Source: Candidatus Omnitrophota bacterium (GTDB lineage: Bacteria > Omnitrophota > Omnitrophia > JAHJGZ01 > JAFGJY01). Taken from it: a stretch of 64,000 nt of DNA. The position numbers and the translations under genes are program-made. Positions 29,099-46,950 of this stretch are shown here, in pieces (the first letter of the stretch is position 1; each line of letters opens with the position of its first letter). The stretch is from positions 1,996 to 65,995 of the forward strand of contig JAFGJY010000019.1 in the NCBI GenBank assembly GCA_016928875.1, written 5' to 3'. The notes below the pieces were generated by a model that saw only the letters and a program-made list of their open reading frames with translations, made no database searches and had not been told where the DNA came from.

Positions 29099-29272
29099 CA
29101 GTGTCTGGTACTCTAACAAAATTGGCTTCCCCATATTATCAATATGTACTCGCAAGAATGATGGGCGCTTAAGGATTCTAAACTTAACCCCATTTCTTGT
29201 AAGGGAATGCTCTGTGCCAATCAATGCCGAAGGCTGATCCGCCTCTGGTGGAAGCCCAGCTAACCGCACGCA
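29099..29272. repeat. degenerate copy of the tRNA-Asp 5' half plus a tRNA-Val-like sequence (direct repeat of 46612-46950)
   Basis: cagtgtctggtactctaacaaaattggcttcccca matches 46612-46648; ggcgcttaaggattctaaacttaacccc...aagggaatgctct[gtgccaatcaatgccgaaggctgatccgcctctggtggaag]cccagctaaccgcacg matches the insertion-bearing tRNA-Val copy at 46821-46950; same orientation. Confidence 0.75.
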
Positions 29273-29350
29273 ATGAGTAAAATATGTCCAATGCGAACGC
29301 CGAAAGAATGAGTATTATAATCAAGCAGGTCATATTTGCCAAATAGAAAG

Positions 29351-30712
29351 CTAGTGAGAATTATTTCTTGTAAATCTTGTTAATATCAATTCATCAAGGA
29401 CTGTTTTAACGTTTTGGGCGATTAATCTATTTCCTTTTGGCGTGCAATGACCGAATTCACCACCGAAAATATCTATAAAATATGTGACATATCCACCGTT
29501 TGCAACGGCGTCTTTAAAAACCTCTTCATTTGATACAAAATTTACCTGTTCCGGATACAGAAAGTGGTCTTTTATTTCATCTACATCTCTAAGCGGGTAT
29601 TGAAGGGCCACAATCGGAATACCATGTTTTAATGCTTTTTCTTCGATAAGTCGGTAATTCTTTCCCGTATAAGGATTAGAAGATCGTTCCCTGATCTTGC
29701 GGGCACGCAAAAAATATTCCTCAGCGAGTTGGCGCTCATTACGATTTAGCTCAACGGTACCAAGTGCGCCCCATAATTTATCATTGCCTGGCAAATGATG
29801 AAGGCCTTTCTTTAATATATCTTCAGCCTCTTCGTAGTTGCTCTCTCTTAAGTATAGTTCAGCTAATACAAGATAGCCGGATAGACTATCACGTTCAATT
29901 TCTATCATCCGTTTGCCAAGTTGGAAAGATTCATCTTCCAACCCCTTCAACGCTTGCTCATGACCCGGTCTCAATTCCAGAGCTTTTAATAGATTCGTGC
30001 GTGATTCTTCGCGCTGACCGACCCAACGTTGTATTGTTCCTAAATATGCTAAGATATCCGCATTCTCAGAAAAACGCTCCGCACCGATCTCTAGTGCTTT
30101 CAGTGCACGTCTATGGGCATTTAAGGAATCAATGTGGTCAACATATTCGATCAGTTCCTCTGCACTCATGCTGTGTAAAGAAGCTATTTGAGCTGTACTA
30201 AGCTGCTCGGATGTGGTGTTATCAAGCAATAATGGGAACCATTTCAATATTACAGCTCTAGATAGACGATAAAAAGTACGAACAAAATGTACTAAACGTA
30301 GGTTACCATATAAATACCAAGGATCGACTTGTTCCATATTGTCGTTTATCCCCATCATGGTAACAATGATGTCCGGATGGTACTGATCAATATATTCTTC
30401 TAATCGAAGGGCGATCCTTCCTGTTGTTGTACCAACCTCCCCTTTATTAATGACTTTTACCCGTTTCACTGCATCGTTACTATCCATTAGCTGTTGCAAT
30501 ATCCATGGATAAGAATACATTCCGCCCGCTGTGGTCGACTCACCAATACAGAGTATACGAACATCGTTATCATTGTGCTGAAAAGTAATATTACTATGTT
30601 CCTGTATCAGGCTAAAGGTGAACCCTAGCAAACGTAGGAACAGCTCAAGAAGCAAAAGTATTATTAGAAAGGCGAGAAGACTAAAAAAGCACTTTTTACG
30701 ATATTTTATCAT
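29351..30712 (-). CDS. membrane-anchored SGNH-like hydrolase with TPR repeats
   Basis: N-terminal TM; ILCIGESTTAGG (a GDS(L)-like block with Glu); central TPR-like repeats; weak functional call. Confidence 0.35.
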   Translation of the reverse strand: MIKYRKKCFFSLLAFLIILLLLELFLRLLGFTFSLIQEHSNITFQHNDNDVRILCIGESTTAGGMYSYPWILQQLMDSNDAVKRVKVINKGEVGTTTGRIALRLEEYIDQYHPDIIVTMMGINDNMEQVDPWYLYGNLRLVHFVRTFYRLSRAVILKWFPLLLDNTTSEQLSTAQIASLHSMSAEELIEYVDHIDSLNAHRRALKALEIGAERFSENADILAYLGTIQRWVGQREESRTNLLKALELRPGHEQALKGLEDESFQLGKRMIEIERDSLSGYLVLAELYLRESNYEEAEDILKKGLHHLPGNDKLWGALGTVELNRNERQLAEEYFLRARKIRERSSNPYTGKNYRLIEEKALKHGIPIVALQYPLRDVDEIKDHFLYPEQVNFVSNEEVFKDAVANGGYVTYFIDIFGGEFGHCTPKGNRLIAQNVKTVLDELILTRFTRNNSH

Positions 30713-30755
30713 GTTGGATGGGAATTAATATCACGACAGATTTCTTGACAGCTAC

Positions 30756-30820
30756 TTTATAATTCTCCCTTTTTCATATATCTGGACTACGATACAATAA
30801 TGCTCAGGTACCAAAGGAAT
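30756..30820. repeat. about 63-bp remnant copy of an internal segment of the TPR gene 26058..27545
   Basis: tttataattctccctttttcatatatctggactacgatacaataatgctcaggtaccaaagg versus 26325-26387 ttcataattcccctctttttcatatatctgggctaccatataataacactcaggtgccatcgg. Confidence 0.65.
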
Positions 30821-30823
30821 ATT

Positions 30824-32587
30824 TTACCCATTTTTACTTAATTGTTCTTCCATTTGATTACGAAAAAAATCTCTGTATACCTGGCTTCCTGATAATAGTT
30901 GCGCATGAGTACCAACTTCTATTTTCCCCTGATTTAAAAAATATATCCTTTCTGCGTCTTTCACTGAAAACAATCTATGTGAAATAATTATAGTGTTTAA
31001 ACCTTGCCTTTTATCTCGTAAGGCCCGAAATATCTTTTCCTCAGTATGTAAATCTACGGCAGAAGTGGCTTCGTCGAGAATAAGCAAGTCAGGGGCTCTC
31101 ACTATGGCTCTCGCCAACGCGATCCGCTGTTTAAGACCTTGTGATAAACGACAGGCGTCTTCACCGATAAAACTATCATAACCATCGGGCAATTGGCTAA
31201 TATAATCATGCACAGAGGCGATCGATGACGCGGCTTCTATTTCTTTCCGGCTCATTCCTTTTAATCCATAGGTGATGTTTTCGCATATTGAAACATCAAA
31301 TAGAAAAGGTTCTTGAGTAGCAATAGTAATGCGTTTGCGTAATGATGTTAATGTTATGTCCTTCAAGTTTAGCCCGTCTAAAAGTACTTCGCCCGCCCAA
31401 GGCTCGTATAGCCTGATCAATAAGTTCATTAACGTGGTTTTACCACTGCCAGAAGGGCCAACGAGCGCCACCCAGGAGCACCCGGGAACATCTAAATTAA
31501 GCTCGTTAAATATTGGCCGATCTTTCTGATATCCAAATGATACATTTTTAAAAGAGATATCTCTATGTATCGACTTTAATGTTTTTGCACCGGCACTATC
31601 CTTTATCTGTGGTTCTATATCCATGACCTCGAATAATTTATCGAACGATACCGCTTCCTGAATAAGATACCCGAATCTGTCCCCCATAGCCTTGAATAAA
31701 CAACCAAGTTGAGTCAAATAAAGCATTACTGCTGTATAGCTGCCGATGCTTATTTTATTATCAATTATGAGCATGCCTCCATAAAACGCAACTCCGCCAA
31801 ATATAGCTTTGGATAAAATAGAAGAACCCACAGAGTTAATGATTGACCAACGAAAGCTTTTGATCCCCCATCGAATATTTTTGATCAAATGTTTTGTGTA
31901 TGTTCGCCTTTGAAAAGACTCGAGGCCAAAAGCCTTAACGATCAGCATCTTGGAGAAACCTTCGTGAATGATGTGGGCCAACTGTGCACCATGCTTCCAA
32001 ACTTCCTCATAAAGTGGCTTCAATTTATTCTGCAGATATATATTGGGAATTATAAATAGAGGACATACAATCAGGAAAAATATAGTCATCCGAAGATCGA
32101 TCCATAATGAAATTACTAATATGATCGAGATCTTGCAAACATCAATCAAGAAAGATGGGCACTGTTCAAGTATAATATTGCAAAGTGTCTCCGTATCAGA
32201 AAGTCTGAATATATTTTCGCCTATTGATTTTGACCGAAAATATTCAAGATCCAGGGAGAATAACTTCTTAATATACTTATCTGCGATATTAAGTCTTATC
32301 TTTATTGATATCCTATTTTTTATGACATCTCGCATAACACCCACAAACATGCTAAAGAGAAATACTATCACTCCGACAACGGATATATCAAGAAATGTAT
32401 CTATATCTTTAGTTAAAAAAGCCTTATCTATGAACAACTTTGAAATTAATGGCCCCACCAAATAGAATATTGAATTGACCAATCCAAATAAGAACAAGAT
32501 GATAATATTTCTCTTGTAAGCGTAGAACACTTTTAAGATGCGATGTGTTGTATTTACTTTATTCTGTTTTGCTAATGTGCAATTCAT
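30824..32587 (-). CDS. ABC exporter, fused permease/ATPase (type I exporter; no C39 peptidase domain)
   Basis: 6-TM N-terminal half; Walker A GPSGSGKTT, LSQGLKQRIALARA, Walker B LILDEATSAVD. Confidence 0.85.
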   Translation of the reverse strand: MNCTLAKQNKVNTTHRILKVFYAYKRNIIILFLFGLVNSIFYLVGPLISKLFIDKAFLTKDIDTFLDISVVGVIVFLFSMFVGVMRDVIKNRISIKIRLNIADKYIKKLFSLDLEYFRSKSIGENIFRLSDTETLCNIILEQCPSFLIDVCKISIILVISLWIDLRMTIFFLIVCPLFIIPNIYLQNKLKPLYEEVWKHGAQLAHIIHEGFSKMLIVKAFGLESFQRRTYTKHLIKNIRWGIKSFRWSIINSVGSSILSKAIFGGVAFYGGMLIIDNKISIGSYTAVMLYLTQLGCLFKAMGDRFGYLIQEAVSFDKLFEVMDIEPQIKDSAGAKTLKSIHRDISFKNVSFGYQKDRPIFNELNLDVPGCSWVALVGPSGSGKTTLMNLLIRLYEPWAGEVLLDGLNLKDITLTSLRKRITIATQEPFLFDVSICENITYGLKGMSRKEIEAASSIASVHDYISQLPDGYDSFIGEDACRLSQGLKQRIALARAIVRAPDLLILDEATSAVDLHTEEKIFRALRDKRQGLNTIIISHRLFSVKDAERIYFLNQGKIEVGTHAQLLSGSQVYRDFFRNQMEEQLSKNG

Positions 32588-33015
32588 TTATTATCTCGTA
32601 CTTTCTTCCGAATAATACCATGCAACGGTTTAAATAGTGTAAGCAAGGGTGCTAATTCTACTATCGCCCGATTAATATATCTGTATCTGCGCTTCGTAAG
32701 ATCGATCATTGTATCATTTTTCAAAATCCCTACCACTTTACCTAATAACATTTCGTTAGTTATACATTCAGGCGCCGACGGAGAATTGTCCCCGCGGACA
32801 TAAAGATGGCTTTTTTTTGCGTCTAGGGACCTTCTTATTAAGCGATGGCAAACCATTTGATCGTTTATTCGATACAATATGATATCGCCGATCACTAGGT
32901 CCTTGAGAGACACTTTTTTGATCAGCAACTTTTGTCCTTGCCTCACAAATGGCCACATACTAAAGCCAATGGCATCAATAAAAATAATATTCTGAAAATC
33001 TCTATTTAAGCCCAT
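32584..33015 (-). CDS. S24/S26-family (signal peptidase I-like) serine peptidase
   Basis: 143 aa; nucleophile motif IGFSMWP (GxSMxP) and GDIILYR...VCHRLI block. Confidence 0.55.
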   Translation of the reverse strand: MGLNRDFQNIIFIDAIGFSMWPFVRQGQKLLIKKVSLKDLVIGDIILYRINDQMVCHRLIRRSLDAKKSHLYVRGDNSPSAPECITNEMLLGKVVGILKNDTMIDLTKRRYRYINRAIVELAPLLTLFKPLHGIIRKKVRDNK

Positions 33016-33024
33016 AATATAATA

Positions 33025-34791
33025 TCACCTAAACTCTATCTGCGAGCTAAAGACACGCTTAAAGTTCTCGGATGCAGCTGTTAACTCTTGCGCTCCGATC
33101 GTCTCGACGGTCCGCGGGTCTACGATCAGCATGATCTTCTCACAATGACGGATAGCTGACAATCGATGCGAAATAACGACAATAGTCGCACTCGGTATCA
33201 GTTGCCGTACATTGGCAAATATATCCGCTTCGGTTGCACTGTCAACGGCGGAGAGCCCCTCATCCATAATTAGAAATTCCGGCTTTTTCAGTAATGCCCG
33301 CGCCAGCGCAATACGCTGCTTTTGTCCTTGCGATAGCTTCACCCCTTCTTCACCGATCATCGTCTTATACCCGTCCTTAAGCCCCGTTATGAATGTATGT
33401 ATCTCACTCATACGACATACTTCTTCGATATCAGAGAACGATGCTGGCAAATGTCCGAAACGCACATTATCCTCAATAGAACTGTTCATAAGAAGCGGTT
33501 GTTGCATTACCATTGCGGCTTTTTCATAGAATGATTTTTTATTAAGGCACCTAAGGTCATTATCACCGATCATGATCGAACCCTCTTGCGGAGATAACAA
33601 ACCAAGCAATAAATATGCTAATGTGGTCTTGCCACATCCGGAATGTCCGACGATCCCCAATGACTCGCCGGGCTGTATCGAGTAGTCGATGTGCTCTAAT
33701 ACCGATTTTCCTGCGCGATACGCGAACGACACATGTTTGACCCTTATTGTCTTATCCAGTAGCGAATCTATCAAAACGCCTTTCTCTGTTGTGACTATGT
33801 TATGTTCATCATGTGCCATGATCTCATTGACCCGTTTGCAGCTTGCCGCTGTAACGACGAGCCTCCGTAACATGAAGGAAACGTGAGACTGTAGCGATAC
33901 GATCTGTCCGGCATAGGCAAGTATTGCGCTCAGCGTCCCAAGCGTGATATCTCCCCGAATGACGCGCACGCATGCATAGATACCTATTACACCAACAAGA
34001 CCGCGCGTTATGACATTGTGTGAGATCATGAGAATAAATTCGAAACGTGCTATCTCGATCGATCGGCGTATGTGCGTTACCAGATCACCGATAATGGAAT
34101 GCTTGATGTACCGCTCGCGATTAAATGCCTTAATGAGGAGAACATGTGCGAATAGTTCGCGAACACCCATTAAAATACGTTCAAAGTATTCCCACAATCC
34201 CGTGTGAAGACTGCGGATCTTTTCATGCGTAAGGAAGATCGGCAATGCAATGATCGGAGCGGCTATGATAAAGAACAGCCCGACTGTGCGATCAAGGATA
34301 AATATAAAATAAAATGAGAAGACCATGCGCGGCAACATCTCGACGAATTCGATCGGGATCGATGTCAACGATTCAGAGATCCGGTCAGTATCGAACATGA
34401 TCCTGTTGGTACCCTGGCTGGAATCGTTATCTATATGGAAACTGATGTCGCGTTGCAAATAACAATTTATGACCTTGTGCCGCAACAAAAACGCGACCTT
34501 GTTCTTCACTATGGTTTGATACATTTGCCGCCATTGTGTGGCCAACAGAGACACACCGCTCAATACTGCGCCAGTTATCGCGATCATAAAGAACAATTGA
34601 AAATCCTTTTCCATTATTCCCTTATCGATCCCCTGACGCATAAACATCGGCAAAAGCAACGTTATACATAAGGGGATCATCGAGGCGAAAGAAAGCATAG
34701 CAAGCGCACGTCGATATCGCCTCACGAAAGGAATGAAGCGCAAACATTCGACGAGTGAATCTTTAATGGATACGATCGAGCGTAGGTTCAT
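33025..34791 (-). CDS. ABC exporter, fused permease/ATPase
   Basis: GHSGCGKTT, LSQGQKQRIALARA, LIMDEGLSAVD; 6-TM N-terminal half. Confidence 0.85.
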   Translation of the reverse strand: MNLRSIVSIKDSLVECLRFIPFVRRYRRALAMLSFASMIPLCITLLLPMFMRQGIDKGIMEKDFQLFFMIAITGAVLSGVSLLATQWRQMYQTIVKNKVAFLLRHKVINCYLQRDISFHIDNDSSQGTNRIMFDTDRISESLTSIPIEFVEMLPRMVFSFYFIFILDRTVGLFFIIAAPIIALPIFLTHEKIRSLHTGLWEYFERILMGVRELFAHVLLIKAFNRERYIKHSIIGDLVTHIRRSIEIARFEFILMISHNVITRGLVGVIGIYACVRVIRGDITLGTLSAILAYAGQIVSLQSHVSFMLRRLVVTAASCKRVNEIMAHDEHNIVTTEKGVLIDSLLDKTIRVKHVSFAYRAGKSVLEHIDYSIQPGESLGIVGHSGCGKTTLAYLLLGLLSPQEGSIMIGDNDLRCLNKKSFYEKAAMVMQQPLLMNSSIEDNVRFGHLPASFSDIEEVCRMSEIHTFITGLKDGYKTMIGEEGVKLSQGQKQRIALARALLKKPEFLIMDEGLSAVDSATEADIFANVRQLIPSATIVVISHRLSAIRHCEKIMLIVDPRTVETIGAQELTAASENFKRVFSSQIEFR

Positions 34792-34817
34792 GGGCGTGTT
34801 ATGTACTTATGTGGTTT

Positions 34818-36455
34818 TTAAACATTTAACCTTGAAAATGTAAAGAGGTCATAGACCTTGAATGTCTTTTTTGCCGTTATAGCATAATTGCCATGGTGCT
34901 GCAACAGATCGAGCGGGAGAGCCTGGGAAGCTGTCATATAATAAAATGTCTCTACGCCGCGAGCATTGAACGTAGATAACATATCCGCAAACTCATCATT
35001 GTTCCGGGCAACAAGCATGCGGCGGTCAAAATACTTCAGCCCCGCGTGTTCGAACAATGAGTTCCTGGTAAAGACGATAATATCGCCGTCATCGGTAAAC
35101 TCTTCTATGAACGTTGTCCGTTCCGCATTGAGTTGCTTGAAATATAAGATATCGCAACGGAACCGAAATACAACGCATCCGATGGTCGCAATGCACAAAA
35201 AGATAAAGACCACGAATATGTTCTTTCTTTTAATAATATCTTCGAATCGTATGCCGATCGCGATCATAACAAAGGGGATCATGGGCAGAAGATAACGCAC
35301 ATTATTATCCGGGTTCCTATAAAATAATATTCCGACCAATGTCATGAAGATAATGAAAACGATGAAGAATAGCTTCAATAGCGTGTTCACATCGTACGCC
35401 CCGAAACGTTCTTGATCAGGTCCTTCCGCTTTGACGGCATAAAACCACAACAAGAAGATACTTAATGGATATTCGATGAACACGCGATCGGTCACTGACT
35501 CTTGCAGCAAAAGGACGATATATCCGCTCCACAGAAGTACGCATAAAAGATCGAATGATTGATCGCTCGATGATCTTCTTGAAGTCATTGATAACCAGAT
35601 CCATGTGCCTATAAATGCGATAACGACCACGAGTTTATCGAATTGGATAAAACGCGGCGGCGGATTGCACGTGACATGCAGTCCGAAGATCGTGCCGTAA
35701 AGCCATTGGTTAACTGCGCAATGTAGCCCAACAACAAAGCCCGTGCCCGCAACGATCGCTGCAACCTCCCGCCAGCGTTTCTTTAGAAGGAAGTATAGTC
35801 CCACCGGCCCCAAGAACGCCACGATAAGGCCGTAACATTCGGTCCGGAAGAAGATCGTCAGCGCTATGCATGCAGAACCGGCTACCATATAACGTATTTT
35901 CTTTGGATCATCATAAACAGAGCGTGTAAAGAGATACAGGCCCGTAACAAGAAAAGCAAGCAAAGGCACGTGGTCCCAAAACGTGATCGCGTATAAACTG
36001 GTCGGGTTTACACACACATAGATAATGGTCAGAATAAGGGCGTACTTCGGCTTGAGCAGGCGCATTATTTTATAAAAAAATAAAGCCCCGACCCAGAACG
36101 CGAGTAGGGGGAAAAACAGAACACACCGCTCCCCTAAAAACGGATAGAGAAAACTTGTCATAAAGGGCAATAATACTTGGTAGGAACTTATCAATCGGCC
36201 GTTATGCAATAACCATTTTCGGTGTGTACCTATGAATGTATATTCGGGATCCAGGTCTTTGGCAGGATAAACAAGCGACAACGACTTCCAATCATTGATG
36301 CAAAAACTTCGCATTTGGATGTATTTTATGCCGAAATCATCGGCATATAATCCGTTCGGGACGAAATGGTAACAGAGGACCAGAACGATCCCCAGCAACA
36401 CGAAGAACAACGTTGCATACGCACCCGCATTGAGTGCACCAGTTCTCTCTCTCAT
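34818..36455 (-). CDS. polytopic membrane protein, GT-C-fold glycosyltransferase-like (ArnT/PMT-like)
   Basis: 545 aa with more than 10 TM helices; DD motif (LYADDFGIKY) in the first extracytoplasmic loop as in GT-C enzymes; weak. Confidence 0.35.
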   Translation of the reverse strand: MRERTGALNAGAYATLFFVLLGIVLVLCYHFVPNGLYADDFGIKYIQMRSFCINDWKSLSLVYPAKDLDPEYTFIGTHRKWLLHNGRLISSYQVLLPFMTSFLYPFLGERCVLFFPLLAFWVGALFFYKIMRLLKPKYALILTIIYVCVNPTSLYAITFWDHVPLLAFLVTGLYLFTRSVYDDPKKIRYMVAGSACIALTIFFRTECYGLIVAFLGPVGLYFLLKKRWREVAAIVAGTGFVVGLHCAVNQWLYGTIFGLHVTCNPPPRFIQFDKLVVVIAFIGTWIWLSMTSRRSSSDQSFDLLCVLLWSGYIVLLLQESVTDRVFIEYPLSIFLLWFYAVKAEGPDQERFGAYDVNTLLKLFFIVFIIFMTLVGILFYRNPDNNVRYLLPMIPFVMIAIGIRFEDIIKRKNIFVVFIFLCIATIGCVVFRFRCDILYFKQLNAERTTFIEEFTDDGDIIVFTRNSLFEHAGLKYFDRRMLVARNNDEFADMLSTFNARGVETFYYMTASQALPLDLLQHHGNYAITAKKTFKVYDLFTFSRLNV

Positions 36456-36493
36456 AGAAAGGCATTACTCCAGCGTTTCAGGCTTCCCTGTTT

Positions 36494-36802: not shown

Positions 36803-36826
36803 CAGTGTCTGTCCATAATGATTTAT

Positions 36827-37294: not shown

Positions 37295-37360
37295 GGTGAC
37301 ATCTCTGCTTGGCTATGATTACTGCTCATCGTTGGTAGACGCGGCAACTTCGGATACAAT

Positions 37361-37436
37361 GTCTTTCCCGCGAAAGCGGGAATCAAGGTACTTTTATGCC
37401 TAGATCTTGGATAAGCCTTCGGCTTTCCGGGACGAC
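37361..37436. repeat. REP-like nested-hairpin intergenic repeat, family A
   Basis: gtctttcccgcgaaagcgggaa...ggataagccttcggctttccgggacgac; the same architecture occurs at about seven intergenic sites between 47 and 60 kb. Confidence 0.7.
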
Positions 37437-38581: not shown

Positions 38582-39627
38582 AATGTGTTAAAGACCTCCT
38601 CTTTAATGCAATATAATTTTTTGTTCATGAACTTCCCTGGATTATGATATGGTTGACAGCGATGGCCAAGATAACAGAGCCGCAAATATTCACAGTTCAC
38701 ACACTCAGCTATCTCTTCGGCTTGTAGGTAAGCAGGTTCACGGAATTGATTCATCACCGGTGAATTGAGCCAAATATCTTTAAGCGAGGTTTCATAAAGG
38801 TCGCCGGCCACACAATCCCAGATTATCTCGCACGGGACGACTTTCCCGTCGGGACGGATGGCACACTGTTTCATCGCTGCCCCGCAGGGACTGACCATGA
38901 GCGGAAATTCAAATGTTGGCGGTGCCTCGCGTAATTTATCCAAGATCTCGACTTGCGTCATAACAGAACCCGTTATTGCATTTTTATATTTTTTGTTCAG
39001 TTCACGTACAACATCGAGCGATTGAAAGGTTTCTGCCGGCGTCATCAGTATTTGGTCGGAATAACAGGCGGCATTGCCGACATAGCACACATTGTTGAAA
39101 CGAATACTGTTAATGCCAAGCTCGCACGAAAGTTTATACATATTTTCAATATCGTGGTAATTGAATTTGGTCAGGATCGCAGACAGCGTAATGCCCCTCT
39201 TTATGCGTTTGATCTCTTCGATACCGCGGATCACCTTATCGAACGAACCCTGGCCGCGAAACGCGTCATGTACTTCGGCGCACGATCCGTCAATGCTGAT
39301 GCAATATGATCTGATCTTCGAACGTGCAAGCCAATCAGCTTCTTCACGATCGATCAATGTTCCGTTAGTGTTCACGCTTATCGTCAGCGGACATTTCCCC
39401 AGTTCCTCGGCAACAAAATGAAAATGTTCGGACATGAATGGCTCACCGCCGAATATCGAAACACTGAAGATCTTCATATCGCGTATCTGATGAATGATAT
39501 TGAGGAGCATTTCACGAGAAAATTCACGGCAGCCTGTCGTGCTGCTCGCCAGACAGTGCTTACAGGCTAAATTACACTTATTGGTTATACCGAAACTGAT
39601 ATTGTGCGGCGCGCTTAAAGTCTTCAT
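38578..39627 (-). CDS. radical SAM/SPASM domain peptide-maturase-like protein
   Basis: CNLACKHC, IFGGEPFM, SPASM CVNCEYLRLCYLGHRC; translationally coupled to 37478-38581. Confidence 0.8.
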   Translation of the reverse strand: MKTLSAPHNISFGITNKCNLACKHCLASSTTGCREFSREMLLNIIHQIRDMKIFSVSIFGGEPFMSEHFHFVAEELGKCPLTISVNTNGTLIDREEADWLARSKIRSYCISIDGSCAEVHDAFRGQGSFDKVIRGIEEIKRIKRGITLSAILTKFNYHDIENMYKLSCELGINSIRFNNVCYVGNAACYSDQILMTPAETFQSLDVVRELNKKYKNAITGSVMTQVEILDKLREAPPTFEFPLMVSPCGAAMKQCAIRPDGKVVPCEIIWDCVAGDLYETSLKDIWLNSPVMNQFREPAYLQAEEIAECVNCEYLRLCYLGHRCQPYHNPGKFMNKKLYCIKEEVFNTL

Positions 39628-39765
39628 ATGTAAATATTTCCATTCATGGGAGCGAGTGCGGTTTATATTTTAGATAATTTACGTTGGAAGAAACTACTAT
39701 ATTATAATATGATTGAACAATCAATAATTAATTTGCTAATCATTTATATTGAATAAGTTAGCGCT

Positions 39766-40959
39766 ATGGTACCATACCGCAAAGACCTGACCGAAAAACT
39801 TCTGATGTTCATCATGAAACATGATGCGCGCGATCTTATTTCTGCAGACGCCCTTGAGCATACTGACTGGAGCACATTCCTGCCGTTCGTGCGCTATCAC
39901 GGTTTACATAGCATGTTGTACCCGCTGCTCAAGCCCTTTCGTGAGCATATCCCCCATGTGCATTACGCTAGTTTTCATAAATCGTATTTTCAAGCGATCG
40001 CATTCAATGTGCGGGCAAAAGGATCATTTATGAAGATCAAAGATCTTTTTGACGGGAACGGTATCCAACTCGTACCGCTTAAAGGTATGGCGCTCATCTT
40101 CGATATTTATTCCTCGCATCCCTCGCGGCCAATGTGCGACCTTGATATCCTGATCACAGATAGTGATTACGAACGAGCGAAGGATCTTCTTAAGCAGATC
40201 GGATACATTAAAAATGTCTCTGATGATAGTGAACACTACTGGCGCAATGAACAGATGCACGTGAGCTTTGGTCCGAGAGACGGTACATTACCATTGTGTA
40301 TACTTGAGATGCACTGGCAGCTTGATTACACGCGCAAGTATCCCCTTTTGTCTGATCTCTGGCACCGCGTCCGGACTATCCCTGATGAAGGCGATGAAAT
40401 TGTGACCCTCTCGCCGGAAGATACACTGTTCTCGCTGGCACTACATCAGCGAAGGTTTGGTGCGCCACTCCAACTTAAGTATGCGTTTGATACGGCGTTG
40501 CTCTTTAAAAAGTATGAGAATAGTATTGATATTGATTATCTTATAAGTGAAGGCCGCAGGTCGCGGATACGATCGGCCCTGTATGCCCTCGTCAAGCAAT
40601 GTTCTTTTTTTTACTCTGATACGTCGGTTGAAAGATTACTAAAGGAATTACACATCTCAACGCTACGCAAGAACTGCCTGGACGCAATGATCAAAAAGAA
40701 CACATTTGAAATACAGAACAACACAAAGCAGCTGTTTGCCACCCTGCATCTGTTCCTCTTTGATAGCTGGAACGAACCATTATTCTACATGCTGAACATA
40801 CCCTATGTGCAGTTCTGCAAATATTACGGTCTTCTCCCCGGGCAGAAATATTCCCGCTTCTTGTACTCTCTCCGTTATTTTTACTATGGAATTGGGCTGA
40901 TACAATTAGGTGTGCAAAAGCTGTGTTTTTTACTACGGGGCGAAGCGGAGAAAAGATGA
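39766..40959 (+). CDS. nucleotidyltransferase-fold family protein (RiPP-cluster associated)
   Basis: PLKGMALIFDIY...CDLDILI matches the pol-beta NTase G[SG]x(n)DxD motif; the family is known next to HprK-like kinases in lasso-peptide clusters. Confidence 0.5.
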   Translation: MVPYRKDLTEKLLMFIMKHDARDLISADALEHTDWSTFLPFVRYHGLHSMLYPLLKPFREHIPHVHYASFHKSYFQAIAFNVRAKGSFMKIKDLFDGNGIQLVPLKGMALIFDIYSSHPSRPMCDLDILITDSDYERAKDLLKQIGYIKNVSDDSEHYWRNEQMHVSFGPRDGTLPLCILEMHWQLDYTRKYPLLSDLWHRVRTIPDEGDEIVTLSPEDTLFSLALHQRRFGAPLQLKYAFDTALLFKKYENSIDIDYLISEGRRSRIRSALYALVKQCSFFYSDTSVERLLKELHISTLRKNCLDAMIKKNTFEIQNNTKQLFATLHLFLFDSWNEPLFYMLNIPYVQFCKYYGLLPGQKYSRFLYSLRYFYYGIGLIQLGVQKLCFLLRGEAEKR

Positions 40960-40980
40960 ACGATCGTTCCCCTGCGTTCT

Positions 40981-41210
40981 TTACAAAGGAAATAGTAACG
41001 GGCCGGCCCCGCCGATACAATCATTAGGCGAAGGACCTGCCGTACAGCTACCAAAAGAGTATCCTACCTCACAAAACCCAGGATGCATGATCGAATTATT
41101 AGTGTTCCATGCGCCGCTCGCAGCATTACCGTGGCCACATGCTAAACATGAGCCGGATACCCTTGGTTATATTCAAAAACTTGTGGCGCAGTATAATGTT
41201 TTTTCGATAT
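40981..41210 (-). pseudogene. decayed precursor gene of the KK-Y-x-x-P-x-I family (start lost, 1-nt frameshift)
   Basis: The minus strand reads ..SKKHYTAPQVFEYNQGYPAHV* then, in the +1 frame, CGHGNAASGAWNTNNSIMHPGFCEVGYSFGSCTAGPSPNDCIGG..*; the DNA aligns to P3 (41228-41473) with ATG changed to TCG and a 1-nt deletion. Confidence 0.6.
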
Positions 41211-41227
41211 ACAATTTGCTGACTGTG

Positions 41228-41473
41228 TTATATCGCGGGCCATACTTGCGGCGAATCACCGGCGGTGCAATTATTAGGGCTACCGCCGGAAGTACAATTC
41301 CCGAACGAATACCCTATGGTGCAATAGCCGGGATAGGCGATTGAATTCCCAATACTGCATGTACCGCTCGCTGTACTCCCCAGGCCACAAGCATATGCAT
41401 CTGCCGGATGCCCTTGGTTATATTCTATGATCTGTGGTGGGCTATAATCTTTTTTATTTTTCATTATTTCCAA
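41228..41473 (-). CDS. putative RiPP precursor peptide P3 (KK-Y-x-x-P-x-I leader family)
   Basis: 81 aa MEIMKNKKDYSPPQIIEY..; core with 6 Cys, ..NCTAGDSPQVWPAI. Confidence 0.65.
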   Translation of the reverse strand: MEIMKNKKDYSPPQIIEYNQGHPADAYACGLGSTASGTCSIGNSIAYPGYCTIGYSFGNCTSGGSPNNCTAGDSPQVWPAI

Positions 41474-41550
41474 ATCTATGATTTTATACTTGTGTAAGAA
41501 TTATAACACATTAGGTATGATTCGCGGATATTTTTGCTGTTTAAAAGCCA

Positions 41551-42636
41551 TTACCGATCTCCATGATCAAGTTTGTTTACTAGATCGTTAAAGTCATCGC
41601 TGAGATCTGCTTTTAACGGGAATTTAAGTTCATAAGAAGGAATACCTGTAGCAATGTCGGCTAGCATATTAAAATAGAAGCTATTACTCTCACGGTCGGC
41701 ATTCATTGCCATAAGCTGTAATGGTTGATCGTAAAAAAGGAAACGACTGAGAGCATCACGCACATCGATGGGCGTTGCTTTTAAAACATCTGATTTCTCA
41801 AGGAAGAATATATATTTGATCGGAAATGAGCGTGATACCATGTCGGCGCTCATACTTCCCTGCTTGTACTCGTTCCACCATGGCGTTGCAACCGCAGAAA
41901 ATCCACCCTGTTCATCGGTCACAATGATACTGAGATCGTCACTCAGACCCCTGTACTTTTTAAGTGTTTTTACGATCGTTGATTTCCCATCGCCTCCCTT
42001 GCCTAAAAATACATACCCTGCCCCCTCACGAGCACACGAAGCCGCATGCATAATGACACCTTTTCGAGCGGCCATAAGTGATGTCCTGAATATCTCGTAC
42101 AGCGCTTGAACGCGAACTAAATGCTGTACTTTTATCTCAAGCGGGTCTGCTTCACCAATGATCAAGCGGAACATGAACCCGCACCGCTGTTGCTTGCAAA
42201 AAAAGCTCAACACTGCGCCGGACGAGACAACCGTCGCATCTTCAGTCTTTACTCCATCCAGAAGTACCTCAAAAAGCTGTGGGTGTGCGTCAAAATACGC
42301 CGCAAAAAAGAATTTAAACGTATCCTCGAGGCAATCTTTGGGATTATTGTACAGTAATACGATCTTCTTCTTAAGCAGCGTGATAAACTCGTGATACTTG
42401 GCTGGTAATCTTTCCCGTCGCGCTTCCACTAAATATTCTATGTAATAATTATAGTCGTTCTCTTCTTCTTGGACCACAGGATACTGTGCGAACGGTGTGT
42501 AGTCTAATATCATGCCTATTTCAGCCTTGCGGCTCACATCAAAATGGATGTTAACGCAGATGCCTGCTATACATACTCTCACCCTATCGAACTGCCGTTT
42601 TTTGAATAGACTATCATGCGATATCATACCATTCAT
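41551..42636 (-). CDS. HPr kinase-related P-loop kinase-like protein (paralog 3)
   Basis: VIMHAASCAREGAGYVFLGKGGDGKSTIV..LSDDLSIIV. Confidence 0.6.
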   Translation of the reverse strand: MNGMISHDSLFKKRQFDRVRVCIAGICVNIHFDVSRKAEIGMILDYTPFAQYPVVQEEENDYNYYIEYLVEARRERLPAKYHEFITLLKKKIVLLYNNPKDCLEDTFKFFFAAYFDAHPQLFEVLLDGVKTEDATVVSSGAVLSFFCKQQRCGFMFRLIIGEADPLEIKVQHLVRVQALYEIFRTSLMAARKGVIMHAASCAREGAGYVFLGKGGDGKSTIVKTLKKYRGLSDDLSIIVTDEQGGFSAVATPWWNEYKQGSMSADMVSRSFPIKYIFFLEKSDVLKATPIDVRDALSRFLFYDQPLQLMAMNADRESNSFYFNMLADIATGIPSYELKFPLKADLSDDFNDLVNKLDHGDR

Positions 42637-42838
42637 ATATGCTCAATCATGTCTTCCATGTTTTTTAAAAGTATTCTATATTGCAATGGACATTAAATTA
42701 TTTTTTATTAACGCCGGCATATCGTACATACTTACATTATGTGGTGAGAATTCCTGACCGGGAACAAAAGAAGGGATTCATAGGCTCATCTTGTGTGAAT
42801 TATCTGCAGCTTCTTGAATAATAACACTTAGAATAAAC

Positions 42839-43087
42839 TCAGTAAACGACGTTGCTACCAAAAGAACAATAGCCTGTTGCAGCAGTGCCGGCCTCGCACA
42901 GCGAAGGGGCGAATCCTGTGTTACATATGTTATTAGCAGCCGTACCAGTACCGCAAGCAGTGCTAGCAGCGCCACCGGAGTTGCACACCCCAATGACGCC
43001 TGATCCGGGATCACAGAGGCCAACACCTTCAGAATCAGAGGGGGGATTAAAAAATGCTATTTGTGGTTTTAAATATGGTCGCTTCAT
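42839..43087 (-). CDS. putative RiPP precursor peptide P4 (KK-Y-x-x-P-x-I leader family)
   Basis: 82 aa MKRPYLKPQIAFF..; core with 7 Cys in a G/S/T/A-rich context. Confidence 0.65.
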   Translation of the reverse strand: MKRPYLKPQIAFFNPPSDSEGVGLCDPGSGVIGVCNSGGAASTACGTGTAANNICNTGFAPSLCEAGTAATGYCSFGSNVVY

Positions 43088-43239
43088 ATATTCAATTCAT
43101 TGTATATTCCTAGAAATGCTTACTCAAATGTTTGTATTATAAATAGTTATAATAATATGTCAATGTATCTTTAACTACGCGCCCGCATTTTTTGAACGCC
43201 TGCTGATTACGGATTACGGGATCTGTTATCTGGGTATAT

Positions 43240-44346
43240 TTACCGTAAATTCCCCTTTATTTTCTCAAAGGCATCTGACAGGTCTTCGGTAATTGGGAAT
43301 TCAAGCTCGTAACACGCACATCGTCGTGTCAGCGTTCGTAAGAAATCAAAATAAAAAGCAATGCTCTTTTTATCTGTGGAAATTCCCTGAAAACGAAATG
43401 GCGAGTCATCATAAAGAAAGCGCCTCATCGCATCGCTTCGGGAAAGAGGGATCATTGCCAGTTTCGTTGCTTTTTTAAGAAAGAAAACATGGCGCAATAC
43501 GTTATCAATGCAAACTTCATGTGCCCTACCCTTACGGGCAACCACATCATCGTTATTCCACAACGATGGAGCGAGCATAAAATCTCCCTTATCCACAGGA
43601 TTTAATACTATGCTTACGTCATCGCTTAAGACATGATATCCCTTGAGACTGTTAATGATCGTCGACTTCCCTCCTCCTCCTCTGCCCATAAAGAGGTTCG
43701 CATCATTACTTTTAAGATTGGATGCACCATGGAGCATAATGCCTTTTCTCTCACCTGCAAGCACGGTTCTTGTGATCATATATAACATTTCCATGCCGGC
43801 TCGACGGTCATAATGGTCAGTCCCCTCATCGGCAGGTGGCACAACAGACAACACGATCCCCACTTTTGCACGTGGGCAGTAGAATACTATCATGATCGAC
43901 GATACGCACATATAGCAATCGCCGTCCAGCAGGATCTTTTTGATCACGTTGAAAATATGGGGGTATTGATCAAAATACGAGGCAAGGTACTGACGCATTA
44001 GTGAATCTCCCTTGATGCATCTATTTCGGTCAAAGTACACAATATTCTTATCGAGGTACGTTAAGATCGTACGATAGTCCGAGTTCACATTGCTAACGTC
44101 AGATCGACGCAGAAAACACAGGTAATAGTCCGCACCGCTTACTACATATCTTGTAGGATCGCTCTGTGTATTCGTACATGCTTCTTTAATAAACGACTGC
44201 TCAACGAAACCATTGTCGTTAGGATCGAATCGTAAGGTTGCATGGATGTACCCCATCTTAAAATACAAGCTAGATGTGAATGTGCTATTGAGAAGCTCTT
44301 TATTCAAACTAGTATCCTTACCGTTAATGATATTTGCATTCATCAT
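43240..44346 (-). CDS. HPr kinase-related P-loop kinase-like protein (paralog 4)
   Basis: GIMLHGASNLKSNDANLFMGRGGGGKSTII..LSDDVSIVL. Confidence 0.6.
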   Translation of the reverse strand: MMNANIINGKDTSLNKELLNSTFTSSLYFKMGYIHATLRFDPNDNGFVEQSFIKEACTNTQSDPTRYVVSGADYYLCFLRRSDVSNVNSDYRTILTYLDKNIVYFDRNRCIKGDSLMRQYLASYFDQYPHIFNVIKKILLDGDCYMCVSSIMIVFYCPRAKVGIVLSVVPPADEGTDHYDRRAGMEMLYMITRTVLAGERKGIMLHGASNLKSNDANLFMGRGGGGKSTIINSLKGYHVLSDDVSIVLNPVDKGDFMLAPSLWNNDDVVARKGRAHEVCIDNVLRHVFFLKKATKLAMIPLSRSDAMRRFLYDDSPFRFQGISTDKKSIAFYFDFLRTLTRRCACYELEFPITEDLSDAFEKIKGNLR

Positions 44347-44457
44347 GTTATTTTCTGCAAAAGGACATAACGAATACTATCAGTAAAGATGAGTTTTGCC
44401 CCGATCTTATTTAATATGAATTCAAATGTCCTTATGGTATAAAATGAAATATGCGTT

Positions 44458-45166
44458 TCATCGCGTATATACTACTATTTCAGGAAATGATTGTCGAACG
44501 CTGTTCTTACCATCCTCCTGATAAGGTGTTTTGTACGCATAGGGGTTCCCGGCATTGATACGTACCAATGACATATCATCAGCAAGACAACAATTCGGCT
44601 CGAGAGTTCGAGCGACCGTTGGTTTACCCTGGTCCGCTGGCCCCCAAAGCAAAGTGTGCTTTACCATTTATTACAACCGCTGCCCCATGCATAAGCAACA
44701 GGTCTATTGTGTGGCATGCAACAAGTCTTACCATATCTTTTATTGTTGCCGAATAGAGACATTCACAGTTCATGGAGTTTTGAGATCGCAGTCGGTATAG
44801 TGGCATCATTCCGGAAGGTATGTGATACGTTATGAATTGATCAGGGTAAACATGCACAGCCTAGGTATTGTCGTTGACAGTGTATACCCGTTGTGCTGGG
44901 TTACGTGCGGCGAGGAGATCATAGCGATCGTTCAAAGAAACACTGGTATTGTTCCTTGCGCATAAAATAACTTCTTCTAGCCTGTCAAATGAGAACGCTT
45001 CATTATTGAAACAATCGATATCCTCGATCCTTACCGTAATGTATTGGTCATGGTCGCCAAAATGATCATTTCTTACATAAAGTGCACGGTGCCGTGCATC
45101 ATGCTCATTCAAATTTATGAGAAAGCTATCATGACTGGAAGAAAAAGCAATACCGGCTGATGACAA
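44458..45166 (-). pseudogene. HprK-like kinase pseudogene (in-frame TAG at 44861-44863 plus a frameshift; C-terminally truncated)
   Basis: ORFs 44861-45166 and 44624-44857 share one frame, separated only by TAG; the second ends ..LLLMHGAAVVINGKAHFALGASGPG (P-loop). The third ORF, 44458-44667, in a shifted frame, continues GKPTVARTLE..LADDMSLV, homologous to the GKST..LSDD..I block. Confidence 0.6.
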
Positions 45167-45229
45167 TTATCTTATTATAATCGATTTAAGAACATAGATA
45201 AATGAAAATAAATAATAATGCAAAGCTGC

Positions 45230-45487
45230 TCATACCGGATATGGCGCCGGAGAACCGCCAAAAACACAATCATTCGGCTTAGCGCCCCACGTACAACTTC
45301 CAAACGTCCCCCCTTGCTCACAAAAACCGGAGATTGCAGTTCCGATAACAGTGCCGTTCATACATGTACCAGATGCAGAACTCCCGCCTCCACATGCGTC
45401 TGCGTATGCAGAAAATGAGTCACCATATTCTAATATAGTTGGTTGAGAATATTTTTTTTTCATAGCGCCTAAACGATTTACTTTCAC
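45230..45487 (-). CDS. putative RiPP precursor peptide P5 (KK-Y-x-x-P-x-I leader family)
   Basis: 85 aa MKKKYSQPTILEY..; core ADACGGGSSASGTCMNGTVIGTAISGFCEQGGTFGSCTWGAKPNDCVFGGSP. Confidence 0.65.
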   Translation of the reverse strand: MKVNRLGAMKKKYSQPTILEYGDSFSAYADACGGGSSASGTCMNGTVIGTAISGFCEQGGTFGSCTWGAKPNDCVFGGSPAPYPV

Positions 45488-45529
45488 TCATAATACGCTA
45501 TTAACTCTGCGTTGTCAAACCAAAATCCT

Positions 45530-46189
45530 TCATCCTTTCTTCTTCATAACACAATATTTCACGTTGTCATTGGATAGCAGGACCCCGCCGATCGCATTGG
45601 CAATAACTCTCAACGTGTTAACTGTATAAAATGAAATATGTGTTTCATCCCTTATGTACCACCATTTAAGGAACTCAATGTCATTGCCAGGATGAAAGCG
45701 TGTCATGATCGCGAGAATTCCATGAGGATTAAGGCGTGACACCAGTTCAGATAATTGCATAAGTGGGCTTTTAAGATGCTCGATCACTTCTGTAGTTGTG
45801 ATCAGATCATACTTCTTTTTAAAGACCTCTTCGTGAGGATAAAAATACGGGTCATAATGATCAACGTATTCTATGTGCTCTTTTAATAATGTTGCAAGCA
45901 CCGGCGTAGTCCCGCAGCCGAAATCGAGGGCTGAAGAGACATGGTCCTTGTGAGGCAGGATCGCGGAATCAATAAAACTCAGGAACATATCGACATATCC
46001 CTTATTTTCGAACGTATTATTATGCAGTTCGTAGCGGCGTTTTTCTTCATCCGGGGCCAGGATCAAACATTCATCAAGTGATATAAACTCGCAGTTCTCA
46101 CACACAACGTAGCGCTTTGATGTTTCTCTGTGTATCAGTATCCTGGTTTGTGAACTACATATTTTGCACGATGGAGTAGGCATTGGCAT
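45530..46189 (-). CDS. class I SAM-dependent methyltransferase with N-terminal Cys4 zinc-ribbon
   Basis: CKICSS...CENCEF ribbon; LDFGCGTTPVLATLL is methyltransferase motif I. Confidence 0.7.
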   Translation of the reverse strand: MPMPTPSCKICSSQTRILIHRETSKRYVVCENCEFISLDECLILAPDEEKRRYELHNNTFENKGYVDMFLSFIDSAILPHKDHVSSALDFGCGTTPVLATLLKEHIEYVDHYDPYFYPHEEVFKKKYDLITTTEVIEHLKSPLMQLSELVSRLNPHGILAIMTRFHPGNDIEFLKWWYIRDETHISFYTVNTLRVIANAIGGVLLSNDNVKYCVMKKKG

Positions 46190-46308
46190 ACCTTAGTTCT
46201 TGTGGTGCCGTATGAGTAAACTACCACGCCCTTACAGACACGGCATTTGTCTAAAAAACCAAGCTGCGCTTGTCCGCGGTCTTTTTGGTACATATATTTT
46301 TATCGGTT

Positions 46309-46452
46309 GGTGGCCGCAGGCTTTAGCCTGCGCTGTACCAAAACCTTGAAAAACATACAATCCACCTACGAGGTGTGAAAAGAGCTTTTCTCACACCTCG
46401 TAGGTGAAGAATCCGTAATTAGTACAAACGCGGGCCAAAGCCTGCGGCTACC
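46309..46452. repeat. nested palindrome (about 30-bp outer arms around a 45-bp near-perfect inner palindrome) in a non-coding spacer
   Basis: Outer arms ggtggccgcaggctttagcctgcgctgtacc and gtacaaacgcgggccaaagcctgcggctacc; inner ccacctacgaggtgtgaaaagagcttttctcacacctcgtaggtg. Confidence 0.6.
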
Positions 46453-46533
46453 ATTCATTCTTGACTCTTCGGACGACCGCGGATTCGCATCCATCCACGC
46501 GCTTACGGACGTGGTATTGTGTGAGGATGCCAT

Positions 46534-46570
46534 AAAAAAGCCGCAACAGAACTGTTACGGCTTTTTTTTA
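46534..46570. terminator. Rho-independent (bidirectional) terminator downstream of tRNA-Asp
   Basis: aaaaaaGCCGCAACAGaaCTGTTACGGCtttttttt: a 10-bp stem with one mismatch, flanked by A and T tracts. Confidence 0.55.
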
Positions 46571-46648
46571 TGGCGGGAGCGACGGGACTTGAACCCGCAA
46601 CACCCAGATCGACAGTCTGGTACTCTAACCAAATTGAGCTACGCCCCC
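46571..46648 (-). tRNA. tRNA-Asp (anticodon GTC), CCA encoded
   Basis: The reverse complement GGGGGCGTAGCTCAATTTGGTTAGAGTACCAGACTGTCGATCTGGGTGTTGCGGGTTCAAGTCCCGTCGCTCCCGCCA folds as a cloverleaf with a 7-bp acceptor stem (one G-U), anticodon loop CTGTCGA and TPsiC GTTCAAG. Confidence 0.85.
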
Positions 46649-46665
46649 ATATATCAATGAATACC

Positions 46666-46740
46666 TGGGCGTTTAAGGATTCGAACCTTAGACCCCTTCC
46701 TTGTAAGGGAAGTGCTCTAAACCAGCTGAGCTAAACGCCC
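46666..46740 (-). tRNA. tRNA-Val (anticodon TAC)
   Basis: The reverse complement GGGCGTTTAGCTCAGCTGGTTTAGAGCACTTCCCTTACAAGGAAGGGGTCTAAGGTTCGAATCCTTAAACGCCCA has acceptor GGGCGTT/AACGCCC and anticodon loop CTTACAA; CCA is not encoded. Confidence 0.85.
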
Positions 46741-46820
46741 GTCAATACAAAAAACAAATTAAGCTTTCTTGGATTCTCCGCCACACGACGTGGCGCATTC
46801 GCCAATATCAGGAAGATATA

Positions 46821-46950
46821 ATGGCGAAGAACCTTAGACCCCTTCCTTGTAAGCCGAGTAGGTCCGCCGTTTTTATTCGCGGAGGAAGTGCTCTGTACAA
46901 ACCTCAGCCAAAGGCTGATCCGCCTCTGGCGGAAGCTGAGCTAAACGCCC
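46821..46950 (-). pseudogene. disrupted second tRNA-Val copy carrying two short insertions
   Basis: gaaccttagaccccttccttgtaag[ccgagtaggtccgccgtttttattcgcggag]gaagtgctct[gtacaaacctcagccaaaggctgatccgcctctggcggaag]ctgagctaaacgcccg; the insertions fall in the anticodon-stem and D-loop regions; insertion 1 recurs at 50613-50645. Confidence 0.7.

Follow-up and report, generated by a model that had tools for sequence, protein, structure and literature searches.

In a 64,000-nt stretch of a Candidatus Omnitrophota contig (JAFGJY010000019.1; the window, whose coordinates are used throughout), an operon of two tRNA genes and a decayed copy of it lie in the same orientation on either side of a module for a ribosomally synthesised and post-translationally modified peptide (RiPP). 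The initial annotation took these tRNA-derived repeats for the attachment (att) sites of a decayed, tRNA-targeting genomic island. Our own reading, held at about even confidence, is that they bound an old direct duplication of a unit of ~17.6 kb and are not att sites. Along the minus strand, the order is a BatD-like gene, the right tRNA operon T (P-ValX-Val-Asp), the module M, a block U, the left decayed operon copy T′ (P′-Val′-Asp′), a second gene cluster Bleft, a relic of the 3′ end of ABC exporter gene #1 (ABC#1), and D, which begins with a precursor gene. To call tRNAs, we used ARAGORN and Rfam; repeats were taken from a BLAST self-comparison and a repeat-family scan, domains from Pfam, and the assembly was checked independently against the Logan assembly of run SRR13394437.

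The right operon begins with a sigma-70-type promoter, P (46995–47023, minus strand), which lies upstream of both tRNAs and matches the consensus perfectly (TTGACA, 17-nt spacer, TATAAT; 12/12 positions). Directly 3′ of P, and ahead of the intact tRNA-Val, sits a tRNA-Val pseudogene, ValX (46771–46950, minus strand), delimited by repeat families D6 and D10 and by alignment. The parts of it that derive from the tRNA match the intact tRNA-Val at 100% identity and are interrupted at three sites, namely the D-loop, the anticodon stem/loop boundary and the T-loop. ValX has no recognisable 3′ acceptor strand and received no tRNA call from ARAGORN or Rfam. The D-loop insert, after tRNA nt 17, is a 30-nt double hairpin that we call el (46904–46933, plus strand, hence antisense in ValX). 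Exactly two intact tRNAs were called in the window by both programs, tRNA-Val(TAC) at 46666–46740 and tRNA-Asp(GTC) at 46571–46648, both on the minus strand, and the sequence after tRNA-Asp reads as a terminator-like hairpin followed by a T-run (~46530–46565).

The left copy matches this operon over 29069–29349 versus 46581–47030, in the same orientation, at 73–77% identity (E 1e-12 to 1e-22). BLAST reports the match in two parts, 29202–29349 versus 46883–47030 (77% over 150 nt, E 1.9e-22) and 29087–29213 versus 46599–46718 (73% over 132 nt, E 3.9e-12), and repeat families D2, D5, D6, D7 and D14 from the scan concur. The degenerate direct repeat that the initial annotation had described is therefore real by both methods, and it is longer than was claimed. 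It begins 7 nt upstream of the −35 box and ends at tRNA-Asp nt 65, so that what is repeated is a whole pseudo-operon and not a 3′ tRNA fragment, with the last 10 nt of tRNA-Asp missing. The promoter P′ (29314–29342, minus strand; TTGGCA, 17-nt spacer, TATAAT; 11/12 consensus positions) has kept its hexamers although its spacer has diverged. Val′ (29162–29269, minus strand, by alignment) is a full-length decayed tRNA-Val copy with acceptor-stem mismatches. Asp′ (29069–29133, minus strand; repeat family D5, BLAST and alignment) is 73% identical to tRNA-Asp up to nt 65, beyond which the 10 nt of the 3′ acceptor strand have been replaced. Thus, the left copy is not limited to the 5′ half of tRNA-Asp, as had been thought from a first inspection. 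Val′ and Asp′ both escape tRNA recognition, even at a threshold of E≤10, and no further tRNA-derived fragments were found elsewhere in the window. Since P′ has retained its hexamers, although its spacer and the tRNAs have decayed, it probably now drives the glycosyltransferase operon that lies downstream at 27629–28957.

Val′ carries a degenerate el at 29221–29252, which matches that of ValX in site and orientation and comes with the same 4 extra nt. The shared D-loop insertion of the initial annotation is thus common to both copies, but its net length is 34 nt (the 30-nt element plus 4 nt) rather than 43 nt. Since T and T′ share the el site, its orientation and these 4 nt, which are absent from the intact tRNA-Val, el would have been present before the operon was duplicated. 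The other two ValX inserts, el2 and el3, are missing from Val′.

The left operon copy is not an assembly artefact, because the Logan contig L244 reproduces 17629–38957 at 99.98% identity. T′, the M/U junction and the ABC relic were recovered on one contig of this independent assembly.

We next consider the gene order of relatives, which are sparsely sampled for this lineage and the closest of which are 56–57% identical to the window at the protein level. A GDSL-TPR homologue with 56% identity lies on a 23.8-kb contig of JGI 3300075153, where the order is IleRS, a pyridoxal phosphate (PLP) enzyme, GDSL, GDSL-TPR, a 950-nt gap, Methyltransf_23, NTP_transf_5 (on the opposite strand), two consecutive rSAM-SPASM (radical SAM with SPASM domain) genes, a 158-aa protein, PqqD and, after further genes, a kinase and an ABC exporter. 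In the window, GDSL-TPR stands directly upstream of T′ and Methyltransf_23 is the first gene downstream of T. Because GDSL-TPR and the Methyltransf_23 module are contiguous in the relative, T and T′ each retain one ancestral flank in the window, a pattern produced by duplication or homologous recombination and not by foreign insertion into a tRNA 3′ end.

This gene order bears directly on the possibility that a 17-kb element entered the tRNA locus by site-specific recombination, leaving degenerate attL and attR sites and later losing its integrase. The window does resemble a tRNA-targeting island in that an accessory cluster of lower GC lies 3′ of the intact tRNA-Asp and is bracketed by tRNA-derived direct repeats, and in that the breakpoint between nt 65 and 66 of Asp′ falls in the 3′ acceptor region, which such integrases use. 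In addition, synteny with L001, the best relative of the BatD-like gene (57% identity), stops exactly at the tRNA locus, because there BatA and BatB follow the BatD-like gene with no tRNA at the site. Sublocation classes of tyrosine-integrase att sites within tRNA genes were reportedly described by Williams in 2002. In such an island, the att repeat duplicates the 3′ part of the target tRNA over a short length and almost exactly. Here, by contrast, the distal repeat is a promoter with whole tRNA genes, 73–77% identical and without the 3′-terminal 10 nt of tRNA-Asp, and the flanks of the two supposed att copies are contiguous in the JGI relative. No ORF (open reading frame) from 2.3 to 47 kb carries a recombinase domain; the initial annotation had seen no integrase, and this is borne out by Pfam, which finds no integrase, recombinase or transposase domain in the ORFs between 2.3 and 49 kb, in agreement with Pfam on L244. 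Composition does not break at the left repeat, and members of the module family, a precursor and the ABC relic, also lie beyond the bracket. With a whole-operon repeat that lacks the Asp 3′ end, no integrase and no step at the left repeat in GC3 (the GC content of third codon positions), we consider a site-specific island very improbable. The fallback offered in the initial annotation, that the repeats arose by another duplication process, fits the whole-operon repeat, the ABC relic and the gene order of the relative.

A second repeat supports the duplication. A 110-nt direct repeat has as its right member the 3′ end of ABC#1 (33022–33131, minus strand), with the final 35 codons, the stop codon and 3 nt, and an orphan copy lies at 10333–10442 (minus strand; 91% identity over 110 nt in the window self-comparison). 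This relic is 19 kb beyond the left tRNA repeat and immediately upstream of a precursor-like ORF outside the bracket (10036–10275, minus strand). Seven of its 10 differences are silent, including a change of the stop codon from TGA to TAA, and 3 are non-synonymous, whereas a non-synonymous fraction of 0.77 is expected at random (P = 0.002). Because the differences are biased toward silent changes, the relic is interpreted as a former functional gene and is not a target duplication made at insertion; judged from these substitutions, it descends from a second ABC#1-type gene that was under coding constraint for some time. T/T′ and the ABC#1 3′ end with its relic are thus two collinear repeat markers, both direct and in the same order.

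From these observations, we infer the following order of events, as well as the mode of duplication (tandem or Campbell-type). The ancestral order would have been U-T-M-D, and tRNA-Val would have been invaded by the 30-nt double hairpin before any duplication. The ~17.6-kb unit would then have been duplicated directly, either in tandem or by entry of a second copy at the tRNA operon through Campbell-type homologous recombination, to give T-M-U-T′-M°-D, with M° standing for the second copy of M. Being redundant, the second tRNA operon would have decayed while its promoter survived, probably to drive the glycosyltransferase operon now. M° may have stayed functional for a time, after which Bleft would have replaced it from the Asp′ acceptor strand to a point 110 nt before the ABC stop. 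The unequal ages of the relics would follow, in that T′, redundant at once, is 23–27% diverged and the relic of M° is 9% diverged, mostly at silent positions. Thus, the duplication model accounts for the repeat of a whole operon, the flanks in the relative, the ABC relic with the continuation of the cluster downstream, and the relic ages. The arrangement resembles known segmental duplication or Campbell-type insertion followed by pseudogenisation, in which two collinear same-orientation relics remain with one copy intact and the other decayed, and it differs in that the second unit here has been largely overwritten by an unrelated cluster and the outer copy of U is missing.

Several points weigh against a duplication of this kind. 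The spacing of the tRNA repeats is 17.5–17.7 kb and that of the ABC repeat is 22.7 kb, and because the two spacings differ, an extra replacement event is needed. The upstream copy of U expected of a simple tandem duplication is absent, with BatD and a copy of a repeat resembling a miniature inverted-repeat transposable element (MITE) in its place, and U is closer in composition to Bleft than to M. The tRNA operon in the 950-nt gap of the relative is supposed, the relative being known from gene order alone, and that relative is just 56% identical and has another chromosomal context, with IleRS upstream. Finally, the join at 46385–47167 lies outside the Logan contigs retrieved and is given solely by the assembly of the metagenome-assembled genome (MAG).

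The gene content of the bracket also bears on what was duplicated. M (33025–46189, minus strand; Pfam and protein comparison) is of RiPP type and holds Methyltransf_23, precursors, two paralogous kinase-like proteins, NTP_transf_5 (on the plus strand), two rSAM-SPASM proteins, an S26-like peptidase, PqqD, a 545-aa orphan protein and ABC exporter #1. U (29351–33015, minus strand; Pfam) holds S24-like peptidase #2, ABC exporter #2 and the GDSL-TPR protein. The gene list of the initial annotation stands for the two ABC exporters, PqqD, the two rSAM-SPASM proteins, the precursors, Methyltransf_23 and the nucleotidyltransferase NTP_transf_5, with all but the precursors resting on Pfam families, and its kinase pseudogene could not be confirmed. 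The two S24/S26-like peptidases have Pfam matches below the curated cut-off, and the two “kinases” are paralogues of each other with no Pfam family above threshold. The three precursor-like ORFs in the bracket are mutually homologous, and the one outside it, directly downstream of the ABC relic, is 41–44% identical to those at 41228–41473 and 45230–45487. The ORF at 34818–36455 is NCBI protein JW938_01635. For the 545-aa orphan protein, one distant homologue was found, in an unrelated context and with no module synteny. Bleft (10443–29068, minus strand; Pfam; GC3 about 0.41), a second rSAM/U32-peptidase/PqqD/glycosyltransferase cluster, fills the space between Asp′ and the ABC relic and starts inside the 3′ acceptor strand of Asp′. 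It encodes at least six radical-SAM proteins, one with a B12-binding domain, three U32-peptidase-like proteins, a PqqD of its own (25757–26044) and an 83-aa Cys-rich precursor-like ORF (25494–25745).

In the comparison of composition proposed in the initial annotation, GC climbs from 0.44 to 0.50 at the intact tRNA locus, GC3 is flat across the left repeat (0.34–0.39 inside versus 0.36–0.39 just outside), and the low-GC accessory DNA spans ~2.3 kb to the tRNA locus and not only the part from 29 kb. Within the bracket, GC3 is 0.34–0.39 at 29.35–33.0 kb, 0.47–0.56 at 33–41 kb and 0.31–0.46 at 41–46 kb. Because GC3 is heterogeneous, a related precursor lies outside, and the ABC exporters #1 and #2 and the two S24/S26-like peptidases are only 26–27% identical between U and M, the bracketed 17.6 kb is not one unit but a composite of two systems.

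The same data could be read as a block transfer, in which low-GC DNA from 10443 to 33021 (U, T′ and Bleft) was gained as one piece from a related donor of lower GC. The donor's own Val/Asp operon would have lain inside the piece, so that T′ would be a xenologous operon copy that decayed as redundant, and recombination at the 3′ end of ABC#1 would have left the 110-nt repeat. Consistent with this, two sharp GC3 jumps, one from 0.39 to 0.53 at 33.0 kb and the other at 10.4 kb, coincide exactly with the 110-nt repeats, and the 4-mer distance of U is 15.0 to Bleft, its closest match, as opposed to 27.4 to the adjacent part of M. A 75-nt direct repeat of 84% identity (30740–30813 versus 26309–26383), a piece of a TPR/UPF0489 gene that recurs in the intergenic region upstream of the GDSL-TPR gene, links U with Bleft across the left pseudo-operon, and the low identity of ABC#2 and S24#2 to their M counterparts is expected of a distinct system. 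However, GDSL-TPR is immediately upstream of an M-type module in the relative, so its position upstream of T′ would be a coincidence, and the silent-biased relic is a once-functional gene copy, for which a second ABC#1-type gene is still required. Composition is also a weak guide here, as M itself is mixed (GC3 0.42 at 41–46 kb and 0.52 at 33–41 kb). Given the gene order of the relative and the bias of the relic toward silent changes, we rank a block transfer as a rival to the duplication and regard it as doubtful.

The element el, which both operon copies share, is TCAGCC-AAA-GGCTGA-TCCGCC-TCT-GGCGGA and folds as two 6-bp hairpins (−17.2 kcal/mol). The second ValX insert, el2 (46854–46883, plus strand), is a 30-nt hairpin element at anticodon position 31|32 with the sequence CCGAGTAGGTCCGCCGTTTTTATT[C/G]GCGGA, whose stem arms TCCGCC/GGCGGA are those of el hairpin 2; a second copy with 1 mismatch lies at 50614–50643, intergenic and upstream of the MoxR gene, and none was found in 1.7 Mb of other fetched loci. 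The third, el3 (46777–46828, plus strand), is a 52-nt double-hairpin insert placed exactly in the T-loop (GGTTC|insert|GAATCC; −23.7 kcal/mol).

Beyond the window, at least 120 contigs from metagenomes and at least 120 from GTDB MAGs contain the exact 17- or 21-nt core of el. The hosts of el include Patescibacteria, Omnitrophota, Ignavibacteria, Binatia, Chloroflexota, Planctomycetota, Verrucomicrobiota, Elusimicrobia, Bdellovibrionota (Bdellovibrionales), and Delta- and Gammaproteobacteria, and flank GC has no influence. Among 211 non-redundant copies, for which the core was fixed by the search, the outer arms are 94–99% conserved, the first loop reads NNA, and YY|el|RA is the preferred flank context. 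Variants with compensated arms (CTCGCC/GGCGAG, TGTGCC/GGCACA and TGAGCC/GGCTCA) were obtained by searching for perfect pairing, which is not an unbiased covariation test. No comparable double hairpin arose in shuffled sequence, and a closing stem formed by the flanks of el is not enriched over controls.

Four other identities for el were rejected. A chance 17-mer does not fit, as ~85% of the metagenome matches share the full 30-nt structure and the flank preferences, and a phage-borne origin was discarded on the basis of just 7 matches in 2.9 million viral contigs. A CRISPR repeat (clustered regularly interspaced short palindromic repeats) was dismissed because the “spacers” of the arrays are identical, 14 or 40 nt long, and made of tRNA fragments. 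A known ribozyme, intron or Rfam family was set aside for want of a covariance-model match, with no Rfam family overlapping el in the window (E≤10) or in 12 further loci (E≤1). The group I introns that interrupt tRNA genes in Patescibacteria are far larger than el and distinct from it.

The association with tRNA genes is not peculiar to the window. For 13% of el copies, an intact tRNA gene is 8–56 nt away, and el is embedded in a partial duplicate of this same tRNA; three types can be distinguished. In the first, a tRNA 5′ fragment upstream of the intact gene has el in its D-loop (Val, Arg, Asn); in the second, a tRNA 3′ fragment downstream has el in its T-loop, GGTTC|el|GAATC (Arg, Gln, Ser, Leu); and in the third, el is in the anticodon loop (Lys). 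Copies beside an intact tRNA include ValX(el)-Val in the window and those in loci L159, L079, L126, L186, L187, L089, L037, L018, L027, L056, L099, L136, L044 and L189. Flanking direct repeats of at least 9 nt accompany 19% of el copies versus 0.8% of controls, and tandem el arrays are present in L027, L084, L114 and L209. In L168, L224 and L136, nested or variant double hairpins occupy a single tRNA D-arm, with several insertions per tRNA fragment (for example, CTCGCC-AGA-GGCGAG-TCCGCC-TAA-GGCGGA and TCAGCC-AGA-GGCTGA-TGTGCC-TCT-GGCACA). This suggests that the same pseudo-tRNA is colonised repeatedly, as in ValX.

The largest protein family neighbouring el is an ~80-aa GIY-YIG catalytic-domain protein (PF01541, E 1e-12 to 1e-16). 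Of the 36 GIY-YIG ORFs in the fetched loci, 19 are within 200 nt of el, and 13 are within 26 nt (18 loci). In L055, the unit is tRNA-Lys(1–36), el, tRNA(37–44), the GIY-YIG ORF and an intact tRNA-Lys; in L016, it is tRNA-Asn(1–12), el, tRNA(13–20) and the ORF, whose stop codon is inside the following intact tRNA-Asn. From these arrangements, we infer that el marks the end of a small GIY-YIG cassette, which would insert into tRNA loops and thereby place a broken partial copy beside an intact tRNA. No GIY-YIG ORF was found in the window by tblastn or hmmsearch; ValX/Val has the architecture of an el cassette without the ORF, and the window copies are relics at most.

A relationship of this kind raises the question of whether the cassette brought about the 17.6-kb repeat itself, through breaks in the tRNA operon that were repaired by unequal recombination. 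In T-even phages (T4/T6), the free-standing GIY-YIG endonuclease SegB cuts tRNA genes at the T-loop motif RAWTSGAAC; it also drives the amplification of segments, both cis and trans, over distances of up to tens of kb (PMC13096335). The likeness to el loci extends to small GIY-YIG genes at tRNA genes, duplicated tRNA segments and tandem amplification, and the T-loop motif is also a point of el insertion (GGTTC|el|GAATC). The el-linked proteins differ from SegB in being ~80 aa long and limited to the catalytic domain, in being chromosomal in uncultured bacteria of many phyla, and in coming with a conserved 30-nt double hairpin, and their nuclease activity is predicted. As el is in both operon copies, the cassette would predate the duplication, and the local duplications and tandem arrays that flank el elsewhere point in the same direction. 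Against this, neither a GIY-YIG ORF nor a remnant of one is detectable in the window, and the duplications at other loci are tens to hundreds of nt long, not 17 kb. A causal role of the nuclease in the duplication is therefore speculation, and we think it quite unlikely.

Two further classes of dispersed element invite comparison with el. Paquin and colleagues reportedly described fungal mitochondrial double-hairpin elements (DHEs) in 2000, near a mobile GIY-YIG ORF in Allomyces. In a later summary, DHEs are GC-rich, about 35 nt long, dispersed and identical across species (PMC10085805). They share with el a GC-rich length of ~30–35 nt, two adjacent hairpins, a dispersed distribution in RNA genes and intergenic DNA, identity across species, and suspected mobility. 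Unlike DHEs, el is bacterial, tied to tRNA loops and linked to GIY-YIG ORFs, and the two are likened by form and not by sequence. REP (repetitive extragenic palindromic) sequences and REPINs, which are mobilised by RAYTs (REP-associated tyrosine transposases), and other MITEs are likewise short palindromic dispersed repeats without coding capacity. However, REPs are species-specific single hairpins tagged GTAG/CGTC, whereas el comprises two hairpins and keeps the same 21-nt core in different phyla, and no RAYT-like neighbour of el emerged from neighbour clustering. Neither the el sequence nor a description of such an element was found in the literature searched, and the 30-nt double hairpin with its GIY-YIG partner at tRNA genes appears to be undescribed.

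Several other features of the window were observed in the course of this work. A 146-nt imperfect palindrome (46308–46453), with a perfect 22-bp inverted repeat in its middle (46363–46406), lies between the methyltransferase gene and the tRNA-Asp terminator, and the Logan contig stops exactly at its centre. A lineage-specific, MITE-like family of intergenic repeats, 80–95 nt long with terminal inverted repeats GTCGTCCCCGCG...CCGGGACGAC, has copies at 37356–37436, 47081–47196, 49357–49459, 54104–54168, 54851–54940, 56253–56290 and 59635–59713, as well as at 11676–11720 of L001. The rSAM module contains one copy, another separates the BatD-like gene from the tRNA promoter, and the Logan assembly breaks at two members of the family. 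The Bat/MoxR operon (47251–52137; response regulator, BatD-domain protein, MoxR, DUF58 and BatD-like) is truncated relative to L001, in that the BatA and BatB-TPR genes that come next in L001 are absent from the 64-kb window. A perfect 54-nt palindrome (51701–51754) is intergenic between the response-regulator and BatD-domain genes. Exact-protein searches with the BatD-like protein, the methyltransferase and the kinase at the left end recovered no other strain and returned either nothing or a short Logan contig.

The duplication that we favour carries the caution that direct repeats which derive from tRNA genes and surround a biosynthetic cluster are not necessarily att sites. It also affects the boundaries drawn for the RiPP cluster, which continues at 2–10 kb. 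As a candidate genomic island, this locus is ordinary, and el with its GIY-YIG partner is the more interesting result. We propose, tentatively and at somewhat less than even confidence, that el, its variants and the ~80-aa GIY-YIG ORF are an undescribed, phylum-crossing family of very small selfish elements. Such elements would home into the D-, anticodon and T-loops of bacterial tRNA genes, keep the host alive by leaving an intact tRNA beside the broken copy, express themselves from the tRNA promoter, decay to solo hairpins such as those in ValX and Val′, and perhaps seed larger duplications such as the 17.6-kb one. If they are active homing cassettes, they would explain many of the broken or duplicated tRNA genes in MAGs and would mark horizontal transfer between uncultured lineages of groundwater and sediment. 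They would then also be a bacterial counterpart of the mitochondrial double-hairpin elements and a source of very small nucleases specific for tRNA genes.

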